From assembly GCA_902571005.1 (NCBI GenBank), contig CACGAG010000004.1:178-64177 (forward strand): a stretch of DNA of 64,000 nucleotides, written 5' to 3'. The position numbers were made by a program, and so were the translations under genes. The notes below the pieces were generated by a model. It worked only from the letters and a program-made list of their open reading frames with translations, was not told the DNA's origin and did not search any database. Shown here in pieces: positions 7,706-26,381 of this stretch. Source of the DNA: an uncultured Pelagibacteraceae bacterium. Its GTDB lineage: Bacteria; Pseudomonadota; Alphaproteobacteria; Pelagibacterales; AG-422-B15. Numbering within the stretch: position 1 is the stretch's first letter; each line of letters begins with the position of its first letter.

Positions 7706-7709
7706 TATT

Positions 7710-8512: not shown

Positions 8513-9418
8513 TTGATTGTGATTAAAATTGTGAGAATTGGTATTCTTGGAGATGGAGTTTGGGCTCAAAATTTATTGCTTCAGATAGTTGAAGACGACT
8601 CGATTCAAATAGCTTTTCTATCAGCAAGATATAATAGACCTGATCAAAAACTCATATCTTTGGGTAAAAAAAATAAGATAAATATTATTAATATTAAAAA
8701 TATTAACTCATCTGACTCTATCAAAATTTTAAAAAGCTTGAAATGTGATTTATTAGTTTCAATGTCCTATAATCAGATTATTGAGCCTAAAGTTTTAAAA
8801 ATCTTTCAAAAAGGTGCAATCAATTGTCATGCCGGAAAACTACCTTTTTATAGAGGTAGGAGTATTTTAAATTGGGTATTAATTAATGATGAAAAAGAGT
8901 TTGGAATAACAGTTCATCAAATTGATAAAACAATTGATACAGGACCAATAATTCTTCAAAAAACTTTCTCAATTGATGATAATGACGATTATAAATCAAT
9001 TTTAGAAAAATCATATTCTGAGGCCCCAAAAATTTTATTTGAAGCAATTAAGTTGATACAAAGTGATTTGTGTGAGATTAAAAATCAGAAAGAAATTCAT
9101 AAAATTGGATCCTATTATTCAAAAAGAAAAGTAGGTGATGAAACTATAGATTGGGAAAAATCATCAAGACAAATATTTAATTTTATAAGAGCTTTAGTTT
9201 ATCCTGGACCATATGCTCAATCTCAAATTAAAAAAAAAATTATAAAATTTATTAAATCAAAACAAGTTAAATTAGATTTAAATAATAAAGAATATATTAG
9301 TGGAGAAGTCATTGAAGGAAATGATGAATACTTTATTATTAGGACTTATGATAATGGAATTAAGATTACAGATTGGGAACCAAGAATCAAAATTAAAAAG
9401 GGGGATAGGTTTACTTGA
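8513..9418 (+). CDS. Sugar N-formyltransferase (FMT fold) 1
   Basis: AINCHAGKLPFYRG and VHQIDKTIDTG formyltransferase motifs plus a C-terminal FMT domain (IDW, IRAL..PGP.A); lies inside the glycan cluster. Confidence 0.85.
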   Translation: MIVIKIVRIGILGDGVWAQNLLLQIVEDDSIQIAFLSARYNRPDQKLISLGKKNKINIINIKNINSSDSIKILKSLKCDLLVSMSYNQIIEPKVLKIFQKGAINCHAGKLPFYRGRSILNWVLINDEKEFGITVHQIDKTIDTGPIILQKTFSIDDNDDYKSILEKSYSEAPKILFEAIKLIQSDLCEIKNQKEIHKIGSYYSKRKVGDETIDWEKSSRQIFNFIRALVYPGPYAQSQIKKKIIKFIKSKQVKLDLNNKEYISGEVIEGNDEYFIIRTYDNGIKITDWEPRIKIKKGDRFT

Positions 9419-10413
9419 AAATAAATATTATTGCTGAAGCTGGAGTTAACCATAATGGTAGAGTTGATAATGCTATAAAATTAGTTGATAAAGCAGCAAT
9501 CGCTGGAGCAGACATTGTTAAATTTCAAACATTTAAAGCAGATATGCTTACTACAGATAAAGCACCAAAAGCCAATTATCAAATCAGAAACACAGGTAAT
9601 AATAATTCTCAGAGTGAAATGCTTAAGTCATTAGAAATGAGTGATGAAATGCATGAAGCTATTATAGAAAGATGTAAATCAAAAAAGATTGAGTTTTTAT
9701 CAACTGCTTTTGATCCTCAAAGTCTTAATTATTTATTAGAGTTGGGTATTAAGAGAATAAAGATCCCTTCAGGAGAAATTACAAATTTTTTTTTACTGGA
9801 AGAAGCTGCAAAAGCAAATCTTAACGTCATTCTCTCAACAGGTATGGCTCATATGAATGAAATTGAAGCAGCATTAAATATTTTATATAAATATGGAGCA
9901 AATAGAGAAAATATAACTATATTACAGTGTGTAACTGACTATCCCGCTAAAGCAATTGATTATAATTTAAAAACAATGAAAACATTTAAAGAATGTTTTG
10001 GGACAGATTATGGAATATCTGATCATACCTTAGGTATTAATGTTTCTTTAGCTTCGGCTGCTCTTGAAGCATCAATAATTGAGAAGCATTTTACGCTCAA
10101 TAAAAAAATGAATGGACCGGATCATTCTGCCAGTTTAGACCCAGATGAATTGAAATTAATGTGCTCTTCAATACGTGAGATTTCAAATTCCCTAGGTGAT
10201 GGGGTAAAAAGACCTACTAATGATGAAATAAATAATATTATAGCTGTAAGAAAATCGCTTGTAGCTTCACGGGAAATTTTACAAGGAGAAGTATTTAGTA
10301 AAGACAATGTTACCGCAAAAAGACCAGGTGATGGACTATCACCAATGAAATGGAATGAATTAGAAGGTAAAAAATCATCTAAAAGATATAAAAAAGATCA
10401 AAAGATAAATTAA
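9415..10413 (+). CDS. neuB: Nonulosonate synthase, LegI/NeuB type
   Basis: TTG start; IIAEAGVNHNG, VKFQTF, KIPSGE, ILSTGM, QCVTDYP, GISDH, IEKHFT, GPDHSAS and a C-terminal SAF domain. Confidence 0.95.
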   Translation: MKINIIAEAGVNHNGRVDNAIKLVDKAAIAGADIVKFQTFKADMLTTDKAPKANYQIRNTGNNNSQSEMLKSLEMSDEMHEAIIERCKSKKIEFLSTAFDPQSLNYLLELGIKRIKIPSGEITNFFLLEEAAKANLNVILSTGMAHMNEIEAALNILYKYGANRENITILQCVTDYPAKAIDYNLKTMKTFKECFGTDYGISDHTLGINVSLASAALEASIIEKHFTLNKKMNGPDHSASLDPDELKLMCSSIREISNSLGDGVKRPTNDEINNIIAVRKSLVASREILQGEVFSKDNVTAKRPGDGLSPMKWNELEGKKSSKRYKKDQKIN

Positions 10414-10415
10414 TC

Positions 10416-11570
10416 ATGAAAAAGGTATGTGTTGTAACAGGAACAAGAGCAGAATTTGGTTTAATGCGATATCTTATAGAGGAAATAAAGTTATCAAAAG
10501 TATTAAAATTACAGTTGGTTGCTACTGGAACTCATTTATCCAAAAAATATGGTGAAACTTATAAAGAAATATTAGCCTCTGGATTTAAGATTGCCTCCAA
10601 TGTAGATTCATTGCTTGATGATAACTCTCCTCGAGGGATTGCGAAATCTGTAGGCTTAGGTACTAAAAAATTTGCAGATGTTTTTCATAAATTAAAACCT
10701 GATGTAGTGATTGTTTTAGGTGATAGATTTGAAATATTGAGTGCAGTGGTGTCTGCAATGTTTCAAGGTATTCCAATTGCTCATATTCATGGTGGTGAGT
10801 CAACAGAGGGATTAATAGATGATCAAATTAGGAACTCAATTACAAAGATGTCCCATCTTCATTTTGTTGCCGCAAAAGAATATTATCAAAAAGTAAATCA
10901 AATGGGTGAGCAGAAAAAAAATATTTTCAATTTTGGAGGTTTAGGCGTTGATGTCATCAAAAGAACAAAGATTTTAACCAAGTCAGAGTTTTCATATAAT
11001 TTTAAATATAATTTTGGTAAAAAAAATTATCTTATAACTTTTCACCCTGTTACTCTAGAAAAGGGAACTGCTAAAAAGCAAGCTCAAGAGCTTGTTAAAT
11101 CATTAAATGAACAGTTAGAAGCTAATATTTTAATTACCTGCCCAAATGCTGATGCAGAAGGAAATCAAATTTATAAGATTTTTAAAAATTTTGCATATAA
11201 GAATAAAAAAGTTTTCTTATATAAATCTCTTGGTTACGTTGGGTATATAAGCGCTCTCAGACACTTTGATTGTATAATAGGAAATTCTTCTAGTGGTCTA
11301 TTAGAAGCACCAACCTTTAAGAAACCTACAATTAATATTGGAAGCAGACAAGATGGAAGACTCAAAGCCAAAAGCGTAATTGATTGTAAGCCTGATTATA
11401 TTTCAATTAACAAATCTATAGAGTATATTAATTCTAAAAAATTTAAAAAAAATCTTTCCAAAGTTAAAAATCCATACGGCAATGGAGGCGCAAGTAAGAA
11501 AATTGTAAAAATTTTAGAGAAAATAGATTTGTCAAATTTAAATAAAAAAAAGTTTTATGTTAAAGAATAA
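10416..11570 (+). CDS. neuC: Hydrolysing NDP-sugar 2-epimerase, LegG/NeuC type
   Basis: VVTGTRAEFG, TGTHLS, LGDRFE, HIHGGE, FHPVT, IGNSSSG, RQDGR, NPYGNG. Confidence 0.95.
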   Translation: MKKVCVVTGTRAEFGLMRYLIEEIKLSKVLKLQLVATGTHLSKKYGETYKEILASGFKIASNVDSLLDDNSPRGIAKSVGLGTKKFADVFHKLKPDVVIVLGDRFEILSAVVSAMFQGIPIAHIHGGESTEGLIDDQIRNSITKMSHLHFVAAKEYYQKVNQMGEQKKNIFNFGGLGVDVIKRTKILTKSEFSYNFKYNFGKKNYLITFHPVTLEKGTAKKQAQELVKSLNEQLEANILITCPNADAEGNQIYKIFKNFAYKNKKVFLYKSLGYVGYISALRHFDCIIGNSSSGLLEAPTFKKPTINIGSRQDGRLKAKSVIDCKPDYISINKSIEYINSKKFKKNLSKVKNPYGNGGASKKIVKILEKIDLSNLNKKKFYVKE

Positions 11571-12468
11571 ACCAAAGATAATAGTAGTTGGTTCTGTAAT
11601 GTTTTCAGAATTCATAATTAAAAATTTTTTGTCTAAGAAGATTGAAATTGTTGGAATAATTGGTAGACGATCGAACAAACTTAACTCTGATCATGTCGAT
11701 TTAAGAATGATATCGAATGAAATGCACATACCATTTCATAGTACAAATGATATAAACTCATCAAAAACAATCAATTGGGCCAAAAAATTAAAACCAGATT
11801 GGATATTATGTGTTGGATGGTCTCAATTATTTAAGGAAAGTATTTTAAAAATACCCAAATATAAAGTAATTGGATATCACCCAGCTTTACTTCCAGCAAA
11901 TAGAGGGAGACATCCTTTAATTTGGGCTCTGTTTCTTGGATTGGATTTTACTGGCTCATCTTTTTTTGTAATGAATGAGAAAGCTGACTCGGGTAAGGTC
12001 ATTTTACAAAAAAAAATAAGAATTAATAAGAATGATAACGCACTAATTCTATACAATAAGATGATTAAGACGGCCCTAAGTCAGGTAAACGGATTAATTA
12101 AAATATTTTTATCAGAAGGAAGAAACTTAACATACGTTAATAAAAACAATAAAATTGTAAAAACTAATTACTGGCGAAAAAGAGATATCCAAGATGGTAT
12201 AATTGATTGGAGAATGTCAAGCATACAAATTGTTAGATTAATTAATGCTCTATATAAACCTTATGTTGGTGCCCAATTTAAATACAAAGGTAAAGATATT
12301 AAAGTCTGGAAAGCAAAAGTAATAAGAATAAATCAACAAAATATTGAGCCAGGAAAAATTATTAGTTATAAAAATTTAAAAAATATAGTAAAAAGTGGGG
12401 ATATGGCTGTACAACTCACAATAATAGAACCAGCAATAAAATTAAAAATCGGATCATATTTAAAATGA
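11557..12468 (+). CDS. Sugar N-formyltransferase (FMT fold) 2
   Basis: IGYHPALLPANRGRHPLIW, ADSG and a C-terminal FMT domain (IDW, INAL.KPY.GA). Confidence 0.82.
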   Translation: MLKNKPKIIVVGSVMFSEFIIKNFLSKKIEIVGIIGRRSNKLNSDHVDLRMISNEMHIPFHSTNDINSSKTINWAKKLKPDWILCVGWSQLFKESILKIPKYKVIGYHPALLPANRGRHPLIWALFLGLDFTGSSFFVMNEKADSGKVILQKKIRINKNDNALILYNKMIKTALSQVNGLIKIFLSEGRNLTYVNKNNKIVKTNYWRKRDIQDGIIDWRMSSIQIVRLINALYKPYVGAQFKYKGKDIKVWKAKVIRINQQNIEPGKIISYKNLKNIVKSGDMAVQLTIIEPAIKLKIGSYLK

Positions 12469-13133
12469 AATCACTTGTAATAGCACCACATGCTGATGAT
12501 GAGTTACTAGGTTGCGCTGGAACTATCCTAAGAAATACCAAACTAGGAAATGAAGTGGGAATTCATTTTGTTACCTCACTTACAAAAAAAGGTGGATGGA
12601 CAACTCAACAAATCAAGAAAAGAGAAAAAGAAATCAAACTCGTAATTAAAGATTTAGGAGTAGAAGATAAGAATATATTTAAAAGCAATTTTGAAGCAAC
12701 CGCGATAGATGAATTAAAATTAAATAAAATGATTATAAATTTTTCAAGTATTATCAAAAAATTTAAACCTGAAAATTTATTTTTACCCTTTTACGGAGAT
12801 ATTCATTCAGAGCATCGTAAAGTATTCGATGCTGCAATGAGTAGTTCAAAGTGGTTTAGGCAACCTTCAATTAAAAATATTTTAATGTATGAAACGGTTT
12901 CAGAAACTGAATTTAATCCTAAGCAATCAGAAACTTTTTCACCAAATTATTTTGTTGATATATCTGAATTTATTGATCAAAAAATTAGACTTATAAATAT
13001 ATATCAATCTGAAATTAAAAATTTTCCATTCCCTAGGAGTAACGAAAATATAATAGCTCTAAGTAAGTTTAGAGGAGCTCAGTCAGGCTTTAACGCTGCA
13101 GAGTCCTTTATGATCGTCAAGAGTAGGGTTTAG
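12465..13133 (+). CDS. PIG-L/LmbE-family de-N-acylase
   Basis: IAPHADDELLG (PHxDD metal motif), DIHSEH, YETVSET, Y.SE...FP.PRS. Confidence 0.88.
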   Translation: MKSLVIAPHADDELLGCAGTILRNTKLGNEVGIHFVTSLTKKGGWTTQQIKKREKEIKLVIKDLGVEDKNIFKSNFEATAIDELKLNKMIINFSSIIKKFKPENLFLPFYGDIHSEHRKVFDAAMSSSKWFRQPSIKNILMYETVSETEFNPKQSETFSPNYFVDISEFIDQKIRLINIYQSEIKNFPFPRSNENIIALSKFRGAQSGFNAAESFMIVKSRV

Positions 13134-13138
13134 AACTC

Positions 13139-14188
13139 GTGACAATATCAATTGAAAAAATTCTATGTACCTCATCTAACTCTGATATCAACAGTGTTTT
13201 GAATGATCTGGAAAATTGTGAAATAAAAACAATAGGAGTATTAAATCAAAATTTGGTATTTATAGGCACAATCACAGACGGTGATATCAGAAGAGCATTA
13301 CTGAAGAAGGATAAAAAACTTCTAACTGCCGAAGATATATGTAACAAAAATTTTTTTTATGTAAAAAATGACAATCAATCAAGTGAAGCAAAAAAAATTA
13401 TACGTGACAATAATATTGATTGTATACCTATTATCAAAGAGGAATTAATTAATGATAATTTCTATATAAAAGCATTTGTAAGAAGAAATTTTAATGAGCT
13501 AAAATCCCTAGAGAAAAAATTTGTAGGGTATATTTTTGCTGGAGGTAGAGGTAGTAGGATGGGTGATCTTACTAAAGAAATTCCAAAACCATTACTTAAA
13601 ATAAATAATAAACCTTTGATAGATCATGTGATTGAAGAATTTATACATTATGAAATTAGAGAAATATATGTATCTACTGGTTACTTGAGTGAGAAGATTG
13701 AGAATTATCTAATGCATTACAATAATCAAGAAGTTAGATTTCATATTTTAAAAGAAAATAATCCATTAGGCACAGCTGGTTCACTATCTCAAACAAGTAA
13801 TTTAAATAAAATTTTGATTTGCAGAAATGCAGACGTAATATCACCTATAAATATAAGAAATATGATGATAAGCCATCTTAAAAATAAGTCAGACTTTACA
13901 ATTGGTTCATTGGTTCATAACTATGATATTCCCTTTGGAGTAATTGAGCACAAAGGTAGTAATTTTGAAAAAATCATAGAAAAACCAACTAATTTTTGGC
14001 ATATCTGTGCTGGTATAAATGTAATAAGTTCAGATATGTGCGCTTACATAAAACCAGGCGAATACATTGATATGCCTACTTTTATAAATAGGCTTTCAAG
14101 AAATAAAAAAAGAGTTAATTTATTCCCAATTTATGAAAATTGGAGAGATATTGGTACACAAGAAGCATTAAATTATATGAACCAATAA
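13139..14188 (+). CDS. CBS-domain nucleotidyltransferase, PtmE/LgaF type
   Basis: GTG start; N-terminal CBS pair (GTITDGDIRRALL), then AGGRGSRM, PKPLL, PLGTAGSL, WRDIG. Confidence 0.88.
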   Translation: MTISIEKILCTSSNSDINSVLNDLENCEIKTIGVLNQNLVFIGTITDGDIRRALLKKDKKLLTAEDICNKNFFYVKNDNQSSEAKKIIRDNNIDCIPIIKEELINDNFYIKAFVRRNFNELKSLEKKFVGYIFAGGRGSRMGDLTKEIPKPLLKINNKPLIDHVIEEFIHYEIREIYVSTGYLSEKIENYLMHYNNQEVRFHILKENNPLGTAGSLSQTSNLNKILICRNADVISPINIRNMMISHLKNKSDFTIGSLVHNYDIPFGVIEHKGSNFEKIIEKPTNFWHICAGINVISSDMCAYIKPGEYIDMPTFINRLSRNKKRVNLFPIYENWRDIGTQEALNYMNQ

Positions 14189-14202: not shown

Positions 14203-15681
14203 GTGTTTAATATTAAATGGCCTATAGGTTTCACATCTAAAAAAGTATATTCTTCAATCAAAGATGTTGAGTTTATATCTTTATCAAATAAACTTTCAAT
14301 TAATAAAGCGTTATTGCCTAAACCGATTCAATGGCATCTTAATTCCATTTTTCAATTTTATCTTATTCCTTATCTAAGGTTGATAAAGTTAAATAATAAC
14401 GATAAGAATATTATAAAACAAAAATCATCAATTTGGTTTTCTGGTTATAGAGAAGTAAGAAATATTGTTTTTTTTGATTTTAAAAACTGGTGCTTTGATA
14501 ATAATTATCGTTTAGATAAAAAATTTCTCTTTTCATTATTTAGATTAATTTTTTTGTTATTATTCTCTCTTACTTCATTTCTCAAAATTTTATTTGTTAT
14601 TTTATATTCTAATATCTACTTAAGAAAGTTTGTAATAGATTTTGAAACTTATTCAAAATTGAATAATGAAAAATTTCTCATTATCAGAAGAGAATTACAA
14701 TTTAAATTTGCTCAGGAAAAATTCTATGAAAAAACTTTAAATAACTCGATTTATATTATTTTTCCAAGTTTTCGACTCCATAAGGAAAATAAAAATAAGA
14801 ATACATATATTATTTTACCAAAATTTGCTCATTTATTTAAAGCACTATTTTCACAAATTAAAAGTATTTATGTCAGTATGACCATCAATGATTATCTGAA
14901 AATAAGTAATAAAGTATCAATTAGTAATTTTTTATTTGAAGCTTCGTTTCATTATGAGAGCTTTCTTTATGATGAGTGGATCAATTCTTTATCTTCCAGA
15001 TCATTTGGGAAAAAATTTTATTCATTTGAACAGGTAAGTTGGGCAGCCGAGATTGAAAAGAATTTGGTTGTTAATAAATGTGAGCTTAATCAAATACAGG
15101 TTGGAATACTGCCACCATTCCCATATCCAACATTAGGATGTACTTCAAATTTTATAGTAAGAAATAAAGATACTTTAAATGAATATTCTAAAATGTTTAA
15201 TAATCGTAATTTTAAAAAACTTGATGTAGATTTAAATATTTTTGCCCGTTCAGATGCTGAGCCTACTCAGTTTTCACGTATAATTTTTGCTACTCAGCCA
15301 TATCGAAAATTTCAAGAAAATAAAATATTATCTTTTTTAGATAATAAATTAAAAAATAATTTAATGGTTAAGCTACATCCTAGGGATAATTATTTGAATT
15401 ATAGTAAATATAAATTAGTAGAGTCTTTTAAGAGTAATGATTTAGTAATTACAAGAACTTCTTCTTTGACTATAGAATTATTTCAAAAAGGTATTCCTTA
15501 TGTTTGTATCATTGATGAAGAAGATGAGGAATTAAATTCTGGTGAGGTATCTAATTATGATGATTATATTGTTTTTAAATCCATTGAGTCAGCATATGAA
15601 GCCATAGAAGAAAATGATAAATTTTTAAAAAGTTTTTTTGCATGGAGAAAATCAAAAATTTTAGAGTACTATGACAAATAA
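14203..15681 (+). CDS. Hypothetical protein, candidate nonulosonate transferase
   Basis: 492 aa; C-terminal region with FATQP, VKLHPRD and ITRTSS resembles the HP and SS/T motifs of bacterial sialyltransferase-type GT-B domains. Confidence 0.45.
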   Translation: MFNIKWPIGFTSKKVYSSIKDVEFISLSNKLSINKALLPKPIQWHLNSIFQFYLIPYLRLIKLNNNDKNIIKQKSSIWFSGYREVRNIVFFDFKNWCFDNNYRLDKKFLFSLFRLIFLLLFSLTSFLKILFVILYSNIYLRKFVIDFETYSKLNNEKFLIIRRELQFKFAQEKFYEKTLNNSIYIIFPSFRLHKENKNKNTYIILPKFAHLFKALFSQIKSIYVSMTINDYLKISNKVSISNFLFEASFHYESFLYDEWINSLSSRSFGKKFYSFEQVSWAAEIEKNLVVNKCELNQIQVGILPPFPYPTLGCTSNFIVRNKDTLNEYSKMFNNRNFKKLDVDLNIFARSDAEPTQFSRIIFATQPYRKFQENKILSFLDNKLKNNLMVKLHPRDNYLNYSKYKLVESFKSNDLVITRTSSLTIELFQKGIPYVCIIDEEDEELNSGEVSNYDDYIVFKSIESAYEAIEENDKFLKSFFAWRKSKILEYYDK

Positions 15682-16774
15682 GTTCGCATTAGTACTTAGA
15701 ATATTCTCAATCTTTATACGGCTAGTTTTTACATTACTTGCTTTTTATTTAAATACAGAAATAGCAAGACAACTACTTTATGTAATAAGTTTTATATATT
15801 TATGGCAAATTATTGGGGGAATGGAAATCTATCTTAATGCCAATAAAAATATTGACGAACATCTTAAATTAATAAAATCAAGTTCTCTAATCATAATTCC
15901 TATTTTTGTATCGTTAGTATTTTTTAAATCTTTATCGATAATAATAATTATATATTTTATTTTTGATTTTCTTTTGATCGAATTTTCAAGAAAGCAAGCT
16001 GTAAATAATAATGTATATATTACTTCTGAAATAAATTTGTTTAGATCAATAATATTTTCATTATCAGTGATTTTTATTGTTTATTTGAGACTTGATCAAG
16101 TAATATTGATTAATGCTTTAGGATCATTAGCCTTATGTTTTTATTATCCAATAATTAGAAGAAATTTTTTACAGTTAGAAAACTTTAAAGAATGGATAAG
16201 CGCAGTTAAACTTGTTGGAAAAAAAAGTATTCCAGTTGCAATTATTAATAGATCAACAGATGTCGTTTTAAGAGAAGTAAATAGTAGTTACGATTTTCTA
16301 GGAACTGTTCTCGATCTTTTAATATCATACTGTGGAGTAGGAAATGTCATAATATTCTATTTATTAATTGCCCCATCTGCTGAAAAATATTTAAAAGGCA
16401 TAGTTGTACCTGATAGTAAAAAATATTTTTTTTCTATTATAATTTATATAGTTGGAATAATTTCAGCATTCTGTGTAATAATATTTTATGAAAGTGAGAT
16501 CTTAATTCAAGAAAATAGTTTTAAGCATGTTGTTCTTGTTTGTATGATTTTGCTCTTATCGTCTATTTTTCAAGTTATAAGTTGGTGTATTATTGGAAGC
16601 AAAGAAAACACACTTATCACTTCAATCCTCTATATTTCTTGTCTAAGCGCTATTGCAATTACATTATTTAAATATGAAAATTTACTTCAACTTTATATAA
16701 TGCTTATTATAATAGTATTATCTATTATCATGGGTATGATTGTTCAGAGTAAAAAATTCAGAAAGAAATTCTAA
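15671..16774 (+). CDS. Polytopic membrane protein, probable Wzx-type flippase
   Basis: 367 aa, hydrophobic throughout with about 10-11 segments; context in glycan cluster. Confidence 0.45.
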   Translation: MTNKFALVLRIFSIFIRLVFTLLAFYLNTEIARQLLYVISFIYLWQIIGGMEIYLNANKNIDEHLKLIKSSSLIIIPIFVSLVFFKSLSIIIIIYFIFDFLLIEFSRKQAVNNNVYITSEINLFRSIIFSLSVIFIVYLRLDQVILINALGSLALCFYYPIIRRNFLQLENFKEWISAVKLVGKKSIPVAIINRSTDVVLREVNSSYDFLGTVLDLLISYCGVGNVIIFYLLIAPSAEKYLKGIVVPDSKKYFFSIIIYIVGIISAFCVIIFYESEILIQENSFKHVVLVCMILLLSSIFQVISWCIIGSKENTLITSILYISCLSAIAITLFKYENLLQLYIMLIIIVLSIIMGMIVQSKKFRKKF

Positions 16775-16779
16775 ATCTA

Positions 16780-17808
16780 ATGAAGTTTGAAAAGTTTACT
16801 TTTTTCCCAGACATTGACCTTTACTTTGATAGAGATATGTATGATGCTAAATTACTTATTGATAATATTATTAATCACGATTTAGAATATTTAAAATTTG
16901 CATTATGCATTAATAATCCCATTAACAGAGATCAAACCGCTGTTGAAAAATGGATTGACAACAAAGATAATGCCAAACAACAAGATTTATACGATATCTT
17001 TGAAGAAAGGAGATTAAGTAGTGACCAAGCCTATGAATTCTTAGAATATGCAAAATCCACAGGATTGAAACTTATTGCATCAGTTTATGATGAAAAAGCT
17101 GTTGAGATTTGTTCAAATTACGTTGAAGCATTAAAAATATCATCATCTAATATCACGAATTTTTTTTTAATAGATAAAGTAATTCAAACTGGAAAATCCA
17201 TTATTATTGATACTGGTAAATCTGATGTACTTGAAATTGAGGATACAATTAATTTTATTAATTCTTATGGTAAGACAAATCATATTCTTTTACAACACAG
17301 TCCAAATAGACCTCCAGCTTTATCAATAGATTGGGCACTTTCTGGATTAGCTTTGTTGAAGAAAAAGTTCAATTTACCCATTGGTCTTAGTGAGCATAGT
17401 AATGAATTTACTCAAACAGTGTGTGCTATTTCTTCGGGAGTAATTAATATAGAAAAAGGAATTATGTTAGATAAAATCCATCAACGGGGTGTCTCCGATT
17501 CAGCTCATGCTTTACCAATTTCAAGATTGAAAGAATATTTAGATATTATTAATGAAACAAGAGAGGCTTTTTTAAAAGAATGGCACGATTTGAAAGATGC
17601 TGACTTTGAAATGAGAAAATATTCAAGATCAGGATTATATGCTGCAAAAGATTTATCAAAAGGTGAAACTTATAGTATTGAAAATATCAATGTATTGGCG
17701 CCTGAAATAGGGATAAGTGGTGCAGAGTACTACAATGTAATTGGAAAAAAAGTTACTAGAGATATAAAAAAAGGTGAGCCGTTAAGAAATGAAAATATTG
17801 GGGATTAG
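16780..17808 (+). CDS. Divergent NeuB-family synthase with SAF domain
   Basis: KISSSNI, IIDTG, GLSEH, IEKG and SAF domain (RSGLYAAKDL.KGE, LAPEIGI) align with the NeuB layout, but several canonical residues are replaced. Confidence 0.8.
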   Translation: MKFEKFTFFPDIDLYFDRDMYDAKLLIDNIINHDLEYLKFALCINNPINRDQTAVEKWIDNKDNAKQQDLYDIFEERRLSSDQAYEFLEYAKSTGLKLIASVYDEKAVEICSNYVEALKISSSNITNFFLIDKVIQTGKSIIIDTGKSDVLEIEDTINFINSYGKTNHILLQHSPNRPPALSIDWALSGLALLKKKFNLPIGLSEHSNEFTQTVCAISSGVINIEKGIMLDKIHQRGVSDSAHALPISRLKEYLDIINETREAFLKEWHDLKDADFEMRKYSRSGLYAAKDLSKGETYSIENINVLAPEIGISGAEYYNVIGKKVTRDIKKGEPLRNENIGD

Positions 17809-18655
17809 TGATAGTCGAAGTCCAGGTGAGTTACTTATAAATACAAATTCTAGAGCTCTTTGCAGAAAATTTGAATTAAATTGGGATTCTGATAAGCGAT
17901 ATTTTGGTTATGAAGACCAATACTTATTCTATGAAGATGAAGATGCCTTCACAAAAATTTACGATATAAGATATAAAGATATAGTAACTAAATCTCATGA
18001 AGTTCATGCACATATTTCAAGTTTTGGTCTTGCACCCAAAATACATGAGATTCAAATTAATGATAAGTGCATCACTGTTAAACTTGAAAAAATTAATTAT
18101 AATAATGATAGTTTTAATACAGAAAAATTGCTGAACAAAGTAATTGAACTACAAGAGATGCTTGAGTCTTTTTTTAAAACAAATATTAAATTAAAAACTG
18201 ATCTTGATGATAATACAAAATTTCTTTTTAAATTAATTGAAGAAAACTTAATTATATACCATAAAAAATTGAATATACCCGAAACATTAATAAGAGAAAT
18301 TAAATCTACAGGAAATATTCTCTTACAGAGCAATGGGATTAATCATGGAGATCTCCATTTTGGAAATATTTTAATCTCCGGTGATAATTTTTTTTTTACT
18401 GATTTTGAGTCTGTTTTTCATTTAGGAGTGAATAATATTATTGATTTTATTAATCTCTCAAGATTTATAGATAAAACGTCTGTATATAATTTTATAAGAA
18501 AACAAGATTTTAAAAAGAGTATACAAGTAGATTTTAAGATATATTTTAATTGGTTAGTCATAAAAAATTTATCTGTTTTAGATCATTTAAAGCAAGAAAA
18601 AAATATGGACATAAGTAATGAATTTAAAAAATTTAGAGAAATGCTTATCTATTAA
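17789..18655 (+). CDS. APH/choline-kinase-fold phosphotransferase
   Basis: Brenner motif NHGDLHFGNIL followed by FTDFE; GLAPKI upstream. Confidence 0.75.
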   Translation: MKILGISDSRSPGELLINTNSRALCRKFELNWDSDKRYFGYEDQYLFYEDEDAFTKIYDIRYKDIVTKSHEVHAHISSFGLAPKIHEIQINDKCITVKLEKINYNNDSFNTEKLLNKVIELQEMLESFFKTNIKLKTDLDDNTKFLFKLIEENLIIYHKKLNIPETLIREIKSTGNILLQSNGINHGDLHFGNILISGDNFFFTDFESVFHLGVNNIIDFINLSRFIDKTSVYNFIRKQDFKKSIQVDFKIYFNWLVIKNLSVLDHLKQEKNMDISNEFKKFREMLIY

Positions 18656-19511
18656 TCAAAATATCATCATCTTTCGTGACTATGGTTCAATTAATTGTGC
18701 AGAAGTTTTATTTAAAAAGATTAAAAATAAGAAAAAAAATATTCTCTTTACTCATAATATCTTAAGATTAAACGAAAAAAAAATAATAGAAAAAAAATTA
18801 AGTGGTTATATTATTAGAAATAATTTTTTGTTTTTTTATTATTTATTATTTAAGAAAAAAAACATTATAATTTTACAATCCTCAAATGTTATTAAATACG
18901 AAAAGTTCATAAAGTTTTTTTTTCAAAATTATTTTGTAATCCAAGATTACATTGGTGATTTTAAGTATGGTTCAAAACCTATTTATTTAACTTCATTTAC
19001 TTATGATGAGAAACAGACAATTCAAAAAACTATAACATTACCTTATATGCGTCCTCAGGTAATTGACAAAAAAAAATATATTTTAGATGAAAAGAGCTTA
19101 TTAATTTTGGGAGCGAGGAATTTAATCACAAAAAAAAATAATACTTTTTTGTCTAAGCTTTACAGTATGAATAAGTATATAAAGATTTTTTATAAACCTC
19201 ATCCTTCAGAATTAATTGATATTGATAAGAATAATTATCTTAAAAGATTAGATTTTGAACTTTTTGAATTTGAGAATGTTAATAAGATTCCAAAATATAT
19301 TATTTCTCCCTTTTCATCTCTTGGTTTTGATTTACCTGAACAAACAAATTTAGATAGTAATTCATTTATTATCTATCATGGTTTTGGAAACAGTTATGAC
19401 AAAAAACATTTTGATGACCCTAATTGGCAATTGCATGTTTCAAATAAGTCTGTAAATTACTTTAAAAACGATTTTAATTTATTTTTACAAGAGATAAAAA
19501 ATAATGTGTAA
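18618..19511 (+). CDS. Hypothetical protein, candidate nonulosonate transferase
   Basis: 297 aa; FYKPHPSE and ISPFSSLG resemble sialyltransferase HP and SS motifs; directly precedes a NeuA homologue. Confidence 0.5.
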   Translation: MNLKNLEKCLSINQNIIIFRDYGSINCAEVLFKKIKNKKKNILFTHNILRLNEKKIIEKKLSGYIIRNNFLFFYYLLFKKKNIIILQSSNVIKYEKFIKFFFQNYFVIQDYIGDFKYGSKPIYLTSFTYDEKQTIQKTITLPYMRPQVIDKKKYILDEKSLLILGARNLITKKNNTFLSKLYSMNKYIKIFYKPHPSELIDIDKNNYLKRLDFELFEFENVNKIPKYIISPFSSLGFDLPEQTNLDSNSFIIYHGFGNSYDKKHFDDPNWQLHVSNKSVNYFKNDFNLFLQEIKNNV

Positions 19512-20169
19512 TGTGATAGCATTCATTCCAGCTAGAAGAAATAGTAAAGGAATAAAGTATAAAAACAGGCAGTTAGTTGATAAAAAAACTATTGTTGAGC
19601 ATGCATTAGATTTTTCGAAATCATTACCATTTGACGAAATTGTTCTTAGTACCGACGATGAGTACTTTATAGACGATAAGAAATTTAAAGATTTTATTAA
19701 CCTCAGAGAGCCAGATTTAAGTGGAGATGATATAATTTTGACAGATGTTTTACTTGATTTGATTAGTAAAAATCAAAATTTCAAAAATAGCTTTATTATT
19801 TTATTAGAGCCAACTTGTCTATTTCGTAAAAAAGATGATTTAAATTTTTTTTTTAATGAAAATTTTTTTAAATCTAAATATAAATCTTTTGCTTCTTTTA
19901 AACGTGAAAAAATCGATTACTCAAAGGGTTGGACTTGTATTGAAGATGAAATGAGACCAATTTCAAATCCTTGGAAGAGAAGACAGGAAGCGCTGACTTA
20001 CTATTGTTTAACAGGTCACTATTATGGTTTTTACGCTAATGAGTTAGTGAATATTTATCCTTCATTATTAGCTGATCCATGTAAGATGATTGACATAGAA
20101 AATGAAAGATGTATAGACATAAATTCTGTGTATGATTTAGAGTTAGTAAGAAAAAAATTTAATGAATGA
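19504..20169 (+). CDS. CMP-nonulosonate synthetase (NeuA family) 2
   Basis: AFIPARRNSKGIKYKN, LSTDD, LLEPT, CIDIN. Confidence 0.88.
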   Translation: MCNVIAFIPARRNSKGIKYKNRQLVDKKTIVEHALDFSKSLPFDEIVLSTDDEYFIDDKKFKDFINLREPDLSGDDIILTDVLLDLISKNQNFKNSFIILLEPTCLFRKKDDLNFFFNENFFKSKYKSFASFKREKIDYSKGWTCIEDEMRPISNPWKRRQEALTYYCLTGHYYGFYANELVNIYPSLLADPCKMIDIENERCIDINSVYDLELVRKKFNE

Positions 20170-21424
20170 TAATCAAGAATCAATTTTTGGATTGCCACAA
20201 GAAGTAAAGATATGTTCCTCTTGCGTATATACGAATCAAAAACCAAATAGTTCAATTGAATTTAGATTTAAAAAAACAGATCTTAAAAGTGGTTTAAAAT
20301 TTTATGGCAGCGAATGTTCAGCTTGTTCCTACAATAAACAAAAAGATGTAGAAATAGATTGGAAACTAAGAAAAAGGAACCTTCAAGAAATTTGTGATAA
20401 GTATAGATCTAGAAACGGATCATACGATTGTTTAGTGCCTGGTTCAGGAGGTAAAGATAGTTTCTTTGCTGCGAATATTTTAAAATTTGAATATAATATG
20501 AATCCGCTAACGGTAACATGGGCTCCTCATGAATATACAAGTTGGGGGTGGTTAAATTTTAAAACTTGGATAGATGGTGGATTTCCAAATTATTTATACC
20601 ATCCAAATGGTGCTGTACATAGGCTATTAAGCAGAGTAGCTCTTGAAAATATTTTCCATCCTTTTCAGCCTTTCATGTTGGGACAATATTCTTTTCCATT
20701 AAGAATTTCAAAATTATTAGGAATACCACTAATATTTTATGGAGAAAATTCAGCTGAATATGGAAATAATATTAATGATAATGACTCTCCAACCAGAAAG
20801 TTATCAGACATTAGCTTTAGAAATATAGATGAAATATTCATTGCAGGCGAATCCGTATCTAAACTATGTGAAAAATTTAAGCTTAAACAATTAGATTTTG
20901 AAGATTATCTTCCTCTCAGATTTGATGATTATAAAGATACCGGAATCGAATGGCATTATCTAGGTTATTATATGCCGTGGCATCCTCATATGAATTATTA
21001 TTACTCTATGAACAGTGGTTTTTTACCTTCTAGAGAACGTAATGCTGGTTCATACAGCAGGTATACAAGTTTAGATGATATGATGGATGATTTTAATTTT
21101 TTTTGTATGTATATAAAATATGGAATTGGTCGAGCAACTTTTGATGCCGCTCAAGAAATTAGGAGAGGGGATATAACTAGGGAAGAGGGTGCCGCCCTAG
21201 TAAAAAAATATGATGGAGAATTTCCACACAGATTCCAAAATAAAATTTTTGATTATTTATCGATCAATCAAATACCAAATTACGGAGATAATTGGTCAGA
21301 AAAGTTTGATAATCCTGGAATGGACATGAATAATTTTAAAACGCTTTGTGATAGATTTAGAAGCCCTCACCTTTGGGAAAAAGATTCAAATAACAAATGG
21401 AAGCTGAAATATGAATTCAAATAA
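20162..21424 (+). CDS. N-acetyl sugar amidotransferase (WbuX/PseA/WbpG family)
   Basis: N-terminal CxxC pairs, YDCLVPGSGGKDS PP-loop, KYGIGRAT.DA.QEIR.G.ITREEG. Confidence 0.9.
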   Translation: MNDNQESIFGLPQEVKICSSCVYTNQKPNSSIEFRFKKTDLKSGLKFYGSECSACSYNKQKDVEIDWKLRKRNLQEICDKYRSRNGSYDCLVPGSGGKDSFFAANILKFEYNMNPLTVTWAPHEYTSWGWLNFKTWIDGGFPNYLYHPNGAVHRLLSRVALENIFHPFQPFMLGQYSFPLRISKLLGIPLIFYGENSAEYGNNINDNDSPTRKLSDISFRNIDEIFIAGESVSKLCEKFKLKQLDFEDYLPLRFDDYKDTGIEWHYLGYYMPWHPHMNYYYSMNSGFLPSRERNAGSYSRYTSLDDMMDDFNFFCMYIKYGIGRATFDAAQEIRRGDITREEGAALVKKYDGEFPHRFQNKIFDYLSINQIPNYGDNWSEKFDNPGMDMNNFKTLCDRFRSPHLWEKDSNNKWKLKYEFK

Positions 21425-22109
21425 CAAAATAATTGCTTCAAAAGTGTACTCTAAAATCAAAAAAAAAAGACCTAAGATAGTTTTTGATAAAATTATATCT
21501 GATGGAAATAGAAAAACTATTAAAGACTGGCTAGATATCGGTTGTGCAACAGGAGATTTAATACATTTTGCTGCAAAAAAATTTGATAATACTAATTTTA
21601 TAGGAATTGATATTTCTAAAACTAATATTGCCCTTGCTAAGAAGAGTTTTCCAGTCAATCAGTTTCCAAATATTGAATTTAGGCATAGAAGTTTGGAGAA
21701 TTTTAAAACTAAAAAATATTTTGATTGTATCACTGCATGTGCTGTAATTGGATATTACGAAGATTTTAATAAATTTTTTAATCCATTAAAAAAATTATTA
21801 AAAAGTAAAGGCACAATATATATTCATGGCTTATTTAATCCTTACAACTTGTTTGTTAAAACAGAATATAAATACAAAAATAATACATACGGTGGTTTAA
21901 ATCAATTTCCTTTAAAAGATACAATTAAACTTATCGAATCAAAAAATTTTACTGTTTCGAAGTACAAAATAAATATAACAAAAAAAATTTTACCTAATAA
22001 AGAGTTTCCGCACCGAAGTTTTTCCTCTAATCATAAAATCTATCCACTTATGAATGGTTGTTTGAATTTGTTGCCAGATACTTTATTGAAATGTAAAAAT
22101 AATGCGTAA
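21411..22109 (+). CDS. Class I SAM-dependent methyltransferase
   Basis: WLDIGCATG, GIDIS, FDCI motifs. Confidence 0.85.
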   Translation: MNSNNKIIASKVYSKIKKKRPKIVFDKIISDGNRKTIKDWLDIGCATGDLIHFAAKKFDNTNFIGIDISKTNIALAKKSFPVNQFPNIEFRHRSLENFKTKKYFDCITACAVIGYYEDFNKFFNPLKKLLKSKGTIYIHGLFNPYNLFVKTEYKYKNNTYGGLNQFPLKDTIKLIESKNFTVSKYKINITKKILPNKEFPHRSFSSNHKIYPLMNGCLNLLPDTLLKCKNNA

Positions 22110-22800
22110 AATTTTGCGATTAGAGCTAAAAAATGGACATGTTGTAAAAGGAAGAATGCTAGAAGGAGTTCAAAAGAGATTTTCTTTTTCAAAATTTTGG
22201 ATGAAGCCCGAAATTGATGATTACCACGAGCTCTTTCTTAATGATAGCGTTGCAACATTATATAACTGGAAAAATTATTTTTTATCAAATCCTTTGCTAG
22301 AATATACTGGAAAACCATTGTCAATTGGAGGCGGTATAAATAATTTAATAGATGCCTCTGAATTAAGAAAACACTCTGAAAAAATCGTTCTTAATACCAT
22401 ATGTTATAAAAATCCTGATTTTATAGATCAATTAGTGGAATTATATGGATCGCAATCTATTGTAGTTGCTGTCGATGTTTTGAAACAAGACGATGAATAT
22501 TGGTGCTTGAAGGTAAATGGAAAGGATTTTACTGGAATAAAATTTACTGACCATATTAGAGAAATTAATAAACACGCTCATGGAGAAATTTTTGTTAATG
22601 ATGTCTCATCTGATGGTATGTTAAATGGTATTAATTTAAAATTAGCAGAATATTTAATGAGGACTATTTCTTCACATCAAGTTGTCATTGGAGGAGGTTA
22701 TAAAGATACTATTCAAGACAAAGAATTAGAGACAATAGGAGTTAGTGGAGTTGTTATTTCTAGAGCCTACTTAGATAATAGATGGGCTATTAATAAATAA
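22102..22800 (+). CDS. HisF-like cyclase subunit of the amidotransferase (WbuZ type)
   Basis: LELKNGHVVKG, SIGGGI, KIVLNT, YGSQSIVVAVDV, DGMLNG; adjacent to WbuX-like and HisH-like genes. Confidence 0.8.
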   Translation: MRKILRLELKNGHVVKGRMLEGVQKRFSFSKFWMKPEIDDYHELFLNDSVATLYNWKNYFLSNPLLEYTGKPLSIGGGINNLIDASELRKHSEKIVLNTICYKNPDFIDQLVELYGSQSIVVAVDVLKQDDEYWCLKVNGKDFTGIKFTDHIREINKHAHGEIFVNDVSSDGMLNGINLKLAEYLMRTISSHQVVIGGGYKDTIQDKELETIGVSGVVISRAYLDNRWAINK

Positions 22801-22820
22801 ATCTTTTAAGTATTAATAAT

Positions 22821-23405
22821 ATGATAAACATAAACATCATTAATGGAAATTTAGGGAATGTTAATAGTCTTAGTAGATTTTTAACATACTTACATTTAGA
22901 TCACAATTTCGTTGATCCTAATTTTAATACTGATGAATTAAAAAATAGCATACTTATCATTCCAGGAAATGGAAACTGGAACTCCATTACAGAAATGTTA
23001 AGTAGTAGAAAAGAATTTATTGTTCGAGCTGTGGAGCATAATTTATTTTTGATTGGAATCTGTGCAGGTTTTCAATCTTTTTTTACAGATAGTGAAGAAG
23101 GAGTTAATAAAGGCCTTGAAGTTTATAAAGAGAATGTAAAAAAAATCAATTCTCAGCGATTACCTATTGTTGGCAATATAAAGTGTAGTGACGACCAGGA
23201 ATACTACTTTTTAAATTCATTTGGTGTCTCTGATATAAACATCAAAAACTCAATTCAAAGTTCGTATAAAATAAATAATAAAAATTATTTAGCATATTTA
23301 TTTCACTCAAATTTTTTTGGTTTCCAGTTTCATCCTGAAATAAGTGGCAAATCAGGTATTTCAATTTTTAAGAAAGCACTTGATATAATAAATCAAAAAA
23401 AATAA
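22821..23405 (+). CDS. HisH-like glutaminase subunit (WbuY type)
   Basis: GNLGNV, IPGNG, GICAGFQ (Cys nucleophile), QFHPEISG. Confidence 0.85.
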   Translation: MININIINGNLGNVNSLSRFLTYLHLDHNFVDPNFNTDELKNSILIIPGNGNWNSITEMLSSRKEFIVRAVEHNLFLIGICAGFQSFFTDSEEGVNKGLEVYKENVKKINSQRLPIVGNIKCSDDQEYYFLNSFGVSDINIKNSIQSSYKINNKNYLAYLFHSNFFGFQFHPEISGKSGISIFKKALDIINQKK

Positions 23406-24536: not shown

Positions 24537-26381
24537 ATGTGTGGCATAGCAGGGTATATTTCAAAAGTTAACCATGAACGGTTCATTTTAAATAGTGGTT
24601 TAATTCAATCACATCGTGGTCCAGATGATAGTAAAAGTATTTTTAAAAATATAAATAATTATAGAATAGGTCTTGGCCACCAAAGGCTTTCGATTTTAGA
24701 TTTAACAACTAGCGGGTCTCAGCCAATGACCTCTAAATCGGAAAATTACCATATAATTTTTAATGGTGAAATATACAATCATAATTCTTTGAAAAAAGAA
24801 TTTTCTATTTTATCTCTTAGAGGAAGTTCAGATACTGAGCTAGCCTTAGAATTAATTGAAAAACTTGGAATTGAAAATGCATGTAAGAAATTTATTGGTA
24901 TGTGGGCGATTGCCGTCATTGACATTAAAAACAATAAAGTTTTCTTTTCTCGTGATAGAATTGGTAAGAAGCCACTGTATTATTTTTTAGATAAAGATAG
25001 TATTTTCTTTTCTTCAGAAATTAAATCTTTAATTAACCTAAATCAAGTCAATAGAGAATTAAATTATAATTCTATTGAGGATTATCTTTCTAATTCAATT
25101 ATATCAAGATCGGATCAAACTTTCTTTAAACACATTCAATCATTTCCAAAATCCCATATAGGTATGATAGATTTAAATTCCGATCATATTAATCTAAAAT
25201 TAAGTAAATACTGGGATATATATGAAGATAAACACAAAAACTTTCACTCTAATAATCTGAATGATCTAATTAAAGACTCAGTAAACATAAGAATTGAAGC
25301 AGATGTTCCTGTTGGGATTGCATTGTCAGGAGGTCTAGACTCTTCAGTAATTGCATCATGCGTAAAAAATAATAAAAAAATAAAAAATGGAAATTTGAGT
25401 TTCTTTTCTTTTGTAAGTCCTGGACATTACTCAAATGAGGAAAAATATATCGATCAAGTCTCAAAGTACTTAAATATTCCTGTAAATAAGGTTTATGCTG
25501 AAAATGACGATGCTGATGCGATGATCAATAATATTATTTCTTGCAATTTGTATAATGATGCTCCAATTTTTTCATTTTCAAGTGTTTTCTTTAGGAACAT
25601 GATGAAAAAAGCAAAAAATAATGGAGTTAAGGTCATGTTGACCGGACAGGGTGCCGATGAAGTATTTTGTGGATACAGAAAATATCCTTTCAAGTATACC
25701 ATTAAACTATTTCAAGAATTAAAAATTTTTAAGTCATTATATTTTATTTTGCCTTTTCTATTGAATAATCTACTTCATCAAGGATTCAGTTATGCAGAAG
25801 CAAAAAGGTATCTTGGAGTTGATAATTCAAAAATATTATCCAAATTCTATAAAATTATTAAAACTAACAATAAATATAAAACTTACAAAAGAGATATAAG
25901 GAATCAACAAATCAGGGATATATTAGAAACAAGTGTACCTGCGTTATGTCACTATGAAGATAGAATGGGAATGGCTGAATCAATCGAAGTACGCTCTCCA
26001 TTTTTAGATCATAGAATAATAGAGTATGGATTAAATATTTCTGAAGAAAATAAAATGCGTTTTGGGTGGTCAAAATATATTCTTAGAAAAACTTTCAAAA
26101 ATGAACTCCCAAAATCTATTATTTGGAGAAAAGATAAAAAGGGATTTTCAAATCCAGAAGATTATTGGCTCAAAGAAAAACTTAAAAGTTTTGTACTTGA
26201 TGTAGCATTATCTGATAATTCTCAAATTTATAAAAAAAATATTATTGATAAAAAAGAATATATTAACTTACTAAATAGATATTTCAGGAATGACCCACGC
26301 ATTTGGTTTAGGGATGTTTTTTGTCCGTTCTCACTTGAATTATGGCTAAAAAATTACGAAGATAAATATGCTAGTATATAG
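24537..26381 (+). CDS. Asparagine-synthase-family glutamine amidotransferase (glycan amidation)
   Basis: MCGIAG, HRGPD, HQRLSILDL, FNGEIYN, LSGGLDSS, LTGQGADE, RSPFLD, KKGF. Confidence 0.9.
   Translation: MCGIAGYISKVNHERFILNSGLIQSHRGPDDSKSIFKNINNYRIGLGHQRLSILDLTTSGSQPMTSKSENYHIIFNGEIYNHNSLKKEFSILSLRGSSDTELALELIEKLGIENACKKFIGMWAIAVIDIKNNKVFFSRDRIGKKPLYYFLDKDSIFFSSEIKSLINLNQVNRELNYNSIEDYLSNSIISRSDQTFFKHIQSFPKSHIGMIDLNSDHINLKLSKYWDIYEDKHKNFHSNNLNDLIKDSVNIRIEADVPVGIALSGGLDSSVIASCVKNNKKIKNGNLSFFSFVSPGHYSNEEKYIDQVSKYLNIPVNKVYAENDDADAMINNIISCNLYNDAPIFSFSSVFFRNMMKKAKNNGVKVMLTGQGADEVFCGYRKYPFKYTIKLFQELKIFKSLYFILPFLLNNLLHQGFSYAEAKRYLGVDNSKILSKFYKIIKTNNKYKTYKRDIRNQQIRDILETSVPALCHYEDRMGMAESIEVRSPFLDHRIIEYGLNISEENKMRFGWSKYILRKTFKNELPKSIIWRKDKKGFSNPEDYWLKEKLKSFVLDVALSDNSQIYKKNIIDKKEYINLLNRYFRNDPRIWFRDVFCPFSLELWLKNYEDKYASI

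Follow-up and report, generated by a model that had tools for sequence, protein, structure and literature searches.

A second NeuB-family protein in a marine surface-glycan island belongs to a widespread clade with an apparently remodelled active site and a constant kinase neighbour

What does a second NeuB-family protein do in a gene cluster that already encodes a canonical nonulosonic acid (NulO) synthase, when residues that define the family's active site have been exchanged? The question arises in a 64,000-nucleotide stretch of DNA from an uncultured Pelagibacteraceae bacterium (contig CACGAG010000004.1; here the window, meaning the whole stretch analysed). An original prediction, made from the letters alone, took the protein encoded at 16780..17808, hereafter variant NeuB, for a NeuB paralogue with a different substrate or chemistry, or for a non-catalytic partner of the canonical NeuB. 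Comparison of sequences and predicted structures places it in a distinct, widespread and uncharacterised NeuB subfamily whose active site appears to be remodelled and whose kinase partner is fixed. We give an even chance to the reading that variant NeuB is an active, neofunctionalised phosphoenolpyruvate (PEP)-dependent alpha-carboxyketose (ulosonic-acid) synthase that acts together with the kinase and does not take a 2-acetamido sugar as its substrate. The two NeuB-family genes, and the domains of the variant, are as follows.

16780..17808, plus strand: variant NeuB-family gene, an intact open reading frame (ORF) of 342 amino acids (aa)
16855-17568 (aa 26-263), plus strand: NeuB TIM-barrel domain (Pfam PF03102, E 2.6e-35)
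17635-17799 (aa 286-340), plus strand: SAF domain (Pfam PF08666, E 1e-9)
9415..10413, plus strand: canonical NeuB/LegI-type NulO synthase of 332 aa with all canonical motifs (TIGR03569, 445.7 bits, over the cut-off; alignments to 1xuu and 8h2c)

The variant ORF begins at an ATG that is the first start codon past the preceding stop, and its N-terminus, MKFEKFTFFPDIDLYF, agrees with that of the homologue P0002, MIFDKFTFFPDIDLYF. An AlphaFold2 (AF2) model built on 42 clade sequences has a mean predicted local distance difference test score (pLDDT) of 94.7, and its best Foldseek matches are Campylobacter jejuni PseI (8h2c) and Neisseria meningitidis NeuB (1xuu), with TM scores of about 0.8. Together with the Pfam matches, this bears out the TIM-barrel layout and SAF domain that had been read from the sequence. 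3-Deoxy-D-arabino-heptulosonate-7-phosphate synthases (DAHPS) and 3-deoxy-D-manno-octulosonate-8-phosphate synthases (KDO8PS) rank below NeuB and PseI (E 1e-10 to 1e-13), NCBIfam DAHPS models match at 1e-8 to 1e-9, and the protein has the features shared across the DAHPS/KDO8PS superfamily: the barrel, a lysine pair, and His, Glu and Asp on the catalytic face. Identity to the canonical NeuB of the window is 25%. Variant NeuB scores 148.6 bits against TIGR03569 (NeuB_NnaB; equivalog cut-off 399.65) and 153.1 bits against TIGR03586 (PseI; cut-off 340.25), nine further clade members likewise fall under these cut-offs, and NCBIfam holds no model specific to the clade.

The residues of variant NeuB were mapped through HMMER alignments to N. 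meningitidis NeuB (1xuu/2wqp) and a MAFFT alignment (A1) with the canonical NeuB of the window. Each line below gives the N. meningitidis residue, its counterpart in the window protein and, for selected positions, the codon on the plus strand.

E25: replaced by D11 (codon 16810-12)
N29 and H30: replaced by Y15 and F16
K53: retained as K39 (codon 16894-96; KFQ becomes KFA)
Q55: replaced by A41
T110: replaced by S101
F112: replaced by Y103
K129: retained as K119 (codon 17134-36)
S132: retained as S122
E134: replaced by N124 (codon 17149-51)
S154: replaced by D144 (codon 17209-11)
M157: replaced by K147
H181: retained as H173 (codon 17296-98)
C182: replaced by S174
N184: retained as N176
Y186: replaced by P178
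S213: retained as S204
H215: retained as H206 (codon 17395-97; SDH becomes SEH)
E234: retained as E225 (codon 17452-54)
H236: replaced by G227 (codon 17458-60; EKH becomes EKG)
D247: retained as D240 (codon 17497-99; GPDH becomes SDSAH)
C250: replaced by H243, a new His (codon 17506-08)
R314: replaced by A307 (codon 17698-700)

Both alignments recover the changes described from the letters: the first strand, IIAEAGVNH, becomes FFPDIDLYF (predicted as IAExGxNH to FPDIDLYF), the Gln of KFQ and the His of EKH are lost while the accompanying Lys and Glu stay, the SEH histidine is kept, and the His seen in DSAHA is H243. The canonical residues are thus replaced rather than conserved but shifted. 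The claim that the HCxxxYP segment had given way to QHSPNRP needs correcting: the exchanges of Cys for Ser and of Tyr186 for Pro178 hold, but the register was off by one, the segment is HSPNRPP, and its His is retained. Four substitutions come on top of those predicted, S154 to D144, E134 to N124, R314 to A307 and M157 to K147. In the AF2 model every substituted position maps to the catalytic face, at the C-terminal end of a barrel strand or in the loop behind it.

Published work on NeuB gives these positions their meaning and supports the roles stated for the SDH and EKH histidines and for the N-terminal Glu. H215 and H236 are the metal ligands; S132, S154, S213 and N184 hold the PEP phosphate; Q55, Y186, D247 and R314 hold N-acetylmannosamine (ManNAc); and Arg314, a SAF-domain residue that contacts the N-acetyl group, is essential, yet missing from the mammalian N-acetylneuraminate-9-phosphate (Neu5Ac-9-P) synthase (PMC11339185). 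The proposed catalytic residues are E25, E134 and E234 (PMC8208679). Variant NeuB thus lacks two of the three catalytic glutamates, E25 and E134, and keeps E234. In the PEP site K39, K119, S122 and S204 are retained, the change of S154 to D144 is invariant in the clade, and N184 is Asn in the window protein and variable across the clade.

A word-indexed homologue search with the window protein returned 6 relatives only; an exhaustive HMMER search with a profile of those relatives returned 12,580 NeuB-superfamily proteins. Of the top 150 representatives at 50% identity, about 55 carry these alternative motifs, and the clade comprises 46 full-length representatives at ≤50% identity, or hundreds of proteins at 90% clustering. 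Its motifs are F[LF]PDI[DG]xxF, K[GFA][EA], SVYD, KI[AP]SSNIxH, DTG[KRH], QHSPxxPP, GLS[DE]H, EKG and D[QI]DxxHAL. Across the 46, K39, K119, D144, H206 and E225 are 100% conserved, followed by S204 and P175 (93% each), N124 (91%) and D240 (86%); His never occurs at position 227, and position 307 holds F, W, Y or A but never Arg. In 92 canonical representatives, PseI and LegI types included, H236 is conserved at 100% and R314 at 85%, and position 154 is Ser or Ala and Asp in none. The conserved replacement set of the clade is D11, N124, D144, K/R/H147, H173-S-P, P178, G227, H243 and an aromatic residue or Ala for Arg314, and the motif hardly varies in 118 proteins more closely related to the Thiomicrospira type.

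A neighbour-joining tree groups the 46 variant proteins as a single clade, with a bootstrap of 67. Database names for its members are generic ('N-acetylneuraminate synthase family protein', 'sialic acid synthase SpsE'), a database cluster look-up gave no names for the clade clusters, and our literature searches turned up no paper on the clade or on the pairing of NeuB with a kinase. Beside it stands a second non-canonical NeuB group, six 'EKT' proteins (P0067, P0078, P0082, P0094, P0118 and P0141) with the motifs FEAGPTH, KFQ, IDTGG, HCPxGYP, FSDH, EKT and SPEH; they have Asp at position 154 and lack His236, and P0078 scores 300 bits against the NeuB model, under the cut-off. The variant clade and this sister group join with a bootstrap of 91.

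Losses of this kind could mark a pseudoenzyme acting as partner or regulator of the canonical NeuB, perhaps by way of a domain-swapped dimer; a non-catalytic partner is one half of the original prediction. H236, E134 and R314 are all gone, each of them important in N. meningitidis NeuB (PMC11339185, PMC8208679), and a canonical NeuB usually lies within about 6 kb. However, the relaxed constraint expected of a pseudoenzyme was not found. The mean entropy of the clade's former active-site positions is 0.97 bits against 2.30 for the whole protein, a value as low as which occurred in none of 20,000 random position sets, and canonical NeuB shows a similar contrast (0.76 in the pocket, 2.19 overall); the five positions used for sorting the sequences were excluded from the test. 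A pocket as constrained as that of active enzymes, but with a new consensus, argues for a changed rather than a lost function: on sequence grounds it is under purifying selection for a different consensus and is not that of a dead copy. The PEP lysines, H215, E234 and D247 are, moreover, invariant or nearly so, and the constant partner of variant NeuB is a kinase rather than NeuB. We consider a non-catalytic role quite improbable, and the conserved alternative pocket, the monophyletic clade and the kinase linkage favour the other half of the prediction, a paralogue with a different substrate or chemistry.

The kinase gene begins within the last codons of variant NeuB.

17789..18655, plus strand: small-molecule kinase of the APH / eukaryotic-like-kinase fold, 288 aa (weak Pfam matches to APH and TCAD9), member of the kinase family fam1

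The two genes overlap by 20 nucleotides (nt). The HGDLxxGN catalytic loop and DFE metal motif of the kinase are intact, and the H, G, N, D and E are invariant in an alignment of partner kinases (A9) that includes it. By profile, the nearest solved relatives of the partner kinase are amicoumacin kinase, ribulosamine-3-kinase, maltokinase, YihE and glucosamine kinase. We collected 31 related loci from metagenome contigs and Genome Taxonomy Database (GTDB) genomes and clustered all neighbouring ORFs into families; the genome search used a 7-sequence alignment and the pattern F[FLW]PDI[DG][LT][YF][FY], which leaves out clade members with an AEIG-type strand 1. A fam1 kinase directly follows variant NeuB in 26 of the 26 loci that have downstream sequence, mostly with a spacing of -25 to +17 nt. 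Variant NeuB is transcriptionally and translationally coupled to an APH-type kinase. At two loci from Niveispirillum and Asticcacaulis metagenome-assembled genomes (L014 and L017, about 5908..7957) the kinase ORF runs to 496 aa, and 527 nt of it are shared with the variant NeuB ORF; translation probably starts further downstream, the alternative being an N-terminal extension. We also considered that the kinase might be an anomeric hexosamine kinase feeding the PtmE-like nucleotidylyltransferase of the cluster in the manner of AmgK/MurU, but such a role leaves the strict adjacency to variant NeuB unexplained.

Two further genes follow in an overlapping run.

18618..19511, plus strand: 297-aa protein with an HP motif ('KPHPSE'), a shorter fam8 homologue; putative cytidine-nucleotide-dependent transferase, sialyltransferase-like or TagF-like
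19504..20169, plus strand: divergent CTP_transf_3 protein (CMP-ulosonic-acid synthetase family) of 221 aa, the second such gene in the cluster (Pfam PF02348, E 6.7e-6)

The first of these had no Pfam match even at E 10 and no homologues by word search, and its single-sequence AF2 model was unusable (pLDDT 34.7); it aligns with fam8 in hhalign (A5 vs A6) with a probability of 88% and E 3e-6 over 268 columns. Proteins of fam8 (about 380 aa, with an RPHPKE motif) follow the kinase in 14 loci, and a fam8 or fam18 transferase-like gene is present in 17; cytidylyltransferase genes usually lie nearby as well. Members of fam8 weakly match Glyphos_transf (CDP-glycerol glycerophosphotransferases, 1.3e-5), the BFO_1060 NulO-transferase family (2e-6) and TarL (0.02). 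BFO_1060 represents a Tannerella family of transferases for NulO derivatives that carries the sialyltransferase D/E-D/E-G and HP motifs (PMC5420450). The cytidylyltransferase scores 44 bits against TIGR03584 (PseF), under the cut-off, and is 39% and 36% identical to proteins of two other loci (L004_10799 and L001_597).

The carriers of these loci include isolates of Thiomicrospira, Hydrogenovibrio and Thiomicrorhabdus, Mesorhizobium liriopis and two Pelagibacterales single-cell genomes, with Asticcacaulis, Niveispirillum, Propionivibrio, Methyloprofundus and Desulfonatronovibrio as further hosts. Most loci are legionaminic-type clusters in which a canonical NeuB lies about 5 kb from the variant gene, and those of Thiomicrospiraceae also carry a Maf-type flagellin glycosyltransferase (PF01973, E 9e-40). 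Two loci, M. liriopis (L009) and L006, have the variant module with no canonical NeuB or other NulO genes within 6 kb, a further point against a partner of NeuB. At both (L009 3038..5709; L006 5343..7288) the module is preceded by fam8 and a protein of about 490 aa (fam21) that carries an 'SPHP' motif and matches BFO_1060 faintly, possibly a second transferase.

The setting of the window bears on another alternative, that variant NeuB is a drifted but ordinary neuraminic, legionaminic or pseudaminic acid synthase of the same chemistry and substrate class, perhaps for a different N-acyl group such as acetamidino or formyl. It sits in a legionaminic-type cluster beside amidino-forming WbuX/HisH/HisF genes and formyltransferases, and a cationic acetamidino group could be accommodated by an aromatic residue at 307 plus the additional acidic residues. 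Yet its scores are far under the NeuB and PseI equivalog cut-offs, and the H236 and R314 of the canonical representatives are both lost. The cluster already has a canonical synthase, the module also stands without NulO genes nearby at L009 and L006, and the kinase partner would go unexplained. We regard this alternative, which would have contradicted the original prediction, as improbable.

The reading we favour is that of NeuB-type chemistry on a different electrophile, a reading suggested by what is kept (the lysines and serines that hold PEP, a single metal His, Glu234 and Asp247) and by the replacement of the recognition residues for the 2-acetamido sugar. Variant NeuB would condense PEP with an aldehyde other than a 2-acetamido sugar, since Arg314, Gln55 and Tyr186 are gone. 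Its metal would be bound differently or be absent; both metal-independent and metal-dependent KDO8P synthases exist in the same superfamily (PMC12531865), so a lost metal ligand is not proof of inactivity. The obligate kinase neighbour suggests a two-step unit. The kinase may act in an adjacent step by supplying a phosphorylated aldose, as ManNAc kinase does for the animal Neu5Ac-9-P synthase, or alternatively may phosphorylate the synthase product in the manner of Kdo kinase. The first option draws support from the gained K/R/H147 and the lost Arg314, both reminiscent of synthases that use phosphate sugars. The product would then be CMP-activated by the cytidylyltransferase at 19504..20169 and transferred by the HP-motif protein at 18618..19511, so that the cell surface or flagellin would bear, beside the legionaminic-type acid made by the canonical NeuB, another ulosonic acid distinct from it.

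Several observations weigh against this scheme. Two of the three catalytic glutamates and the essential Arg314 are replaced, changes that inactivate the canonical enzyme. The invariant exchange of S154 for Asp puts a negative charge at the PEP-phosphate site, where N184 is also variable, and PEP binding may be altered. Bootstrap support for the clade is moderate, at 67, and falls to 35 once 26 pocket columns are dropped. The assignment of the HP-motif transferase depends on weak profile matches. Several loci have one cytidylyltransferase within 6 kb, so that dedicated CMP-activation is not universal, and the 31 loci contain no conserved phosphatase gene, which weakens the version running from kinase to synthase to phosphatase. 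Activity, PEP use, substrate and product are all predictions from sequence.

The invariant Asp at the PEP-phosphate Ser position is the main unexplained feature of variant NeuB, and it keeps open a rival with different chemistry, in which the NeuB scaffold performs something other than PEP-aldose condensation: use of pyruvate or another 2-oxo acid, transfer of the C3 unit onto a keto sugar or a nucleotide-linked sugar, or some other action on the phosphorylated product of the kinase. This would account for a PEP-phosphate pocket with Asp for S154 and a variable N184, combined with Asn for E134 and Gly for H236. The pocket of the main clade is also more acidic (E41, D144, D238 and D240), and obligate pairing with a kinase is without precedent for bacterial NeuB, LegI or PseI. 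However, the PEP-holding residues K53, K129, S132 and S213 are retained at 86-100%, every characterised member of the superfamily uses PEP (PMC12531865), and K/R/H147 could substitute for the lost phosphate contacts. We judge different chemistry unlikely, though it deserves to be taken seriously.

A broader proposal goes further: variant NeuB, its APH-type kinase neighbour and the HP-motif transferase, together with a cytidylyltransferase, may constitute an unrecognised pathway that makes and attaches ulosonic acids of a new class. The metal and substrate site on the NeuB scaffold would have been re-invented, and the pathway would be common in marine bacteria including SAR11-type bacteria and Thiomicrospiraceae. 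Its product might be a phosphorylated or amino/amidino keto-sugar acid, or a C-branched sugar made from PEP and a keto sugar. This wider claim is possible but doubtful.

The variant gene is found well beyond the window. Many metagenomes of marine and seawater origin, drawn from several studies, contain its region, and three marine metatranscriptomes (runs X22, X23 and X24) contain short contigs of 151 to 213 nt that fall inside the gene with 0 or 1 mismatches (window 16742..17715). These contigs probably reflect transcription of the gene in situ, residual DNA in the RNA libraries being another possible source.

Around the module, the cluster contains the following genes.

5303..6019, plus strand: first CTP_transf_3 cytidylyltransferase (NeuA/LegF-like), of the canonical NulO set (PF02348, E 5.7e-27)
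8513..9418, 11557..12468 and 12465..13133: two formyltransferase-like genes (Formyl_trans_N/C) and a PIG-L-type deacetylase, flanking the canonical NeuB and NeuC
10416..11570, plus strand: NeuC/LegG-like hydrolysing UDP/GDP-GlcNAc 2-epimerase (PF02350, E 3.7e-87)
13139..14188, plus strand: PtmE-like sugar-1-phosphate nucleotidylyltransferase with CBS and NTP_transferase domains (fam3, in 18 of the 31 loci)
14203..15681, plus strand: 492-aa protein of unassigned family with a 'KLHPRD' motif (fam10, conserved in the window lineage)
15671..16774, plus strand: 367-aa polytopic membrane protein with about 10 hydrophobic segments (fam13, conserved upstream of variant NeuB in the window lineage)
20162..21424, plus strand: WbuX-type N-acetyl sugar amidotransferase
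21411..22109, plus strand: S-adenosylmethionine (SAM) methyltransferase
22102..22800, plus strand: HisF-like protein
22821..23405, plus strand: HisH-like protein

The first 37 kb or so of the window form a single plus-strand glycan island with a G+C content of 23-30%, against 31-36% in the core genes past 42 kb, and it looks like the hypervariable surface-glycan island of a low-G+C marine bacterium. The core genes (tkt-gap-pgk-fba, a split pntA, pntB, and purK) identify a bacterial chromosome; a tRNA-Val (42137..42211) lies near the transition from island to core. The island holds a legionaminic-acid-type set of dehydratase, aminotransferases, short-chain dehydrogenases/reductases, a GFO/IDH/MocA oxidoreductase, cytidylyltransferase, NeuB and NeuC. 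The formyltransferase and deacetylase genes suggest that its legionaminic-type acid is N-formylated rather than N-acetylated; a formyltransferase and deacetylase pair also occurs in L014, L015, L017 and L027. The genes at 20162..23405 form an acetamidino-forming set, possibly for N-methyl-acetamidino, and this WbuX/methyltransferase/HisF/HisH set adjoins the variant module in the window and in most NulO-type loci. The 492-aa protein, possibly a second transferase, occupies a position like that of fam21, with no detectable homology to it; hhalign detected no relation of fam10 to either fam8 or fam21. At the left edge of the window, the match of a 190-aa ORF (212..784) to GDP-mannose-4,6-dehydratase-type enzymes is confined to their C-terminal part (profile positions 141-331), a 157-aa ORF (807..1280) matches only the N-terminal 160 of the 245 positions of NTP_transferase, and a 110-aa ORF follows (1341..1673); these may be split or frameshifted rmlB/rmlA-like genes. 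Further inside the glycan cluster, an asparagine-synthase-like amidotransferase (24537..26381) is followed by a gene with a heparinase II/III C-terminal domain (26368..28215).

If the favoured reading is right, the clade would be the first NeuB-family branch to function without the second metal His, Glu134 and the essential Arg314, and would show a re-tooling of the alpha-carboxyketose synthase scaffold. From the conserved module of synthase, kinase and transferase one would expect flagellin or envelope glycans to bear a keto-sugar acid, or a modified form of such an acid, that has yet to be described; the module is carried by widespread marine bacteria and several culturable genera. Were the new pathway real, it would shape those glycans and hence recognition by phages and grazers. 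Because clade proteins are labelled as sialic-acid synthases, they will be miscounted wherever NeuB homologues serve in surveys as markers of pathways for sialic, legionaminic or pseudaminic acid.

Among known systems, variant NeuB most resembles NeuB, LegI and PseI (NeuB 1XUZ, PseI 8H2C), with which it shares the PF03102 and SAF architecture, a fold at a TM score of about 0.8, a location in NulO clusters and the equivalents of K53, K129, S132, S213, H215, E234 and D247. It differs from them in an identity of 22-25%, below curated cut-offs, in the exchanges H236 to G, E25 to D, E134 to N, S154 to D, Q55 to A, Y186 to P and R314 to A, and in its new conserved H243, its K/R/H147 and its obligate kinase neighbour. 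The retained His (beta7), Glu (beta8) and Asp (loop) presumably correspond to the metal ligands of KDO8PS and DAHPS. The KDO8P synthases provide a precedent for a metal-ligand swap with activity kept (PMC12531865), although they belong to another branch of the family, have no SAF domain and use arabinose-5-phosphate.

In the pathways of the animal Neu5Ac-9-P synthase and the Bacteroides KDN-9-phosphate synthase, a kinase supplies a phosphorylated aldose to the synthase. Those kinases are of the ROK type, whereas the window kinase is of the APH type, and the 31 loci hold no conserved HAD phosphatase. The mammalian Neu5Ac-9-P synthase likewise has no Arg314 equivalent (PMC11339185). For the transfer step, the Tannerella forsythia NulO-derivative transferases BFO_1060/Tanf_01245 and TagF/TarL provide the comparison: fam8 and the protein at 18618..19511 have the HP motif (PMC5420450), the fam8 matches being weak and under family cut-offs and the window protein having no direct match. 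KdkA, which one partner kinase matches faintly by profile (E 0.089), serves as an analogy rather than as evidence of homology. With the monofunctional Kdo transferase of Haemophilus and Vibrio lipopolysaccharide it follows the same logic, in which an ulosonic acid is made, transferred and phosphorylated by a kinase of eukaryotic-like fold.

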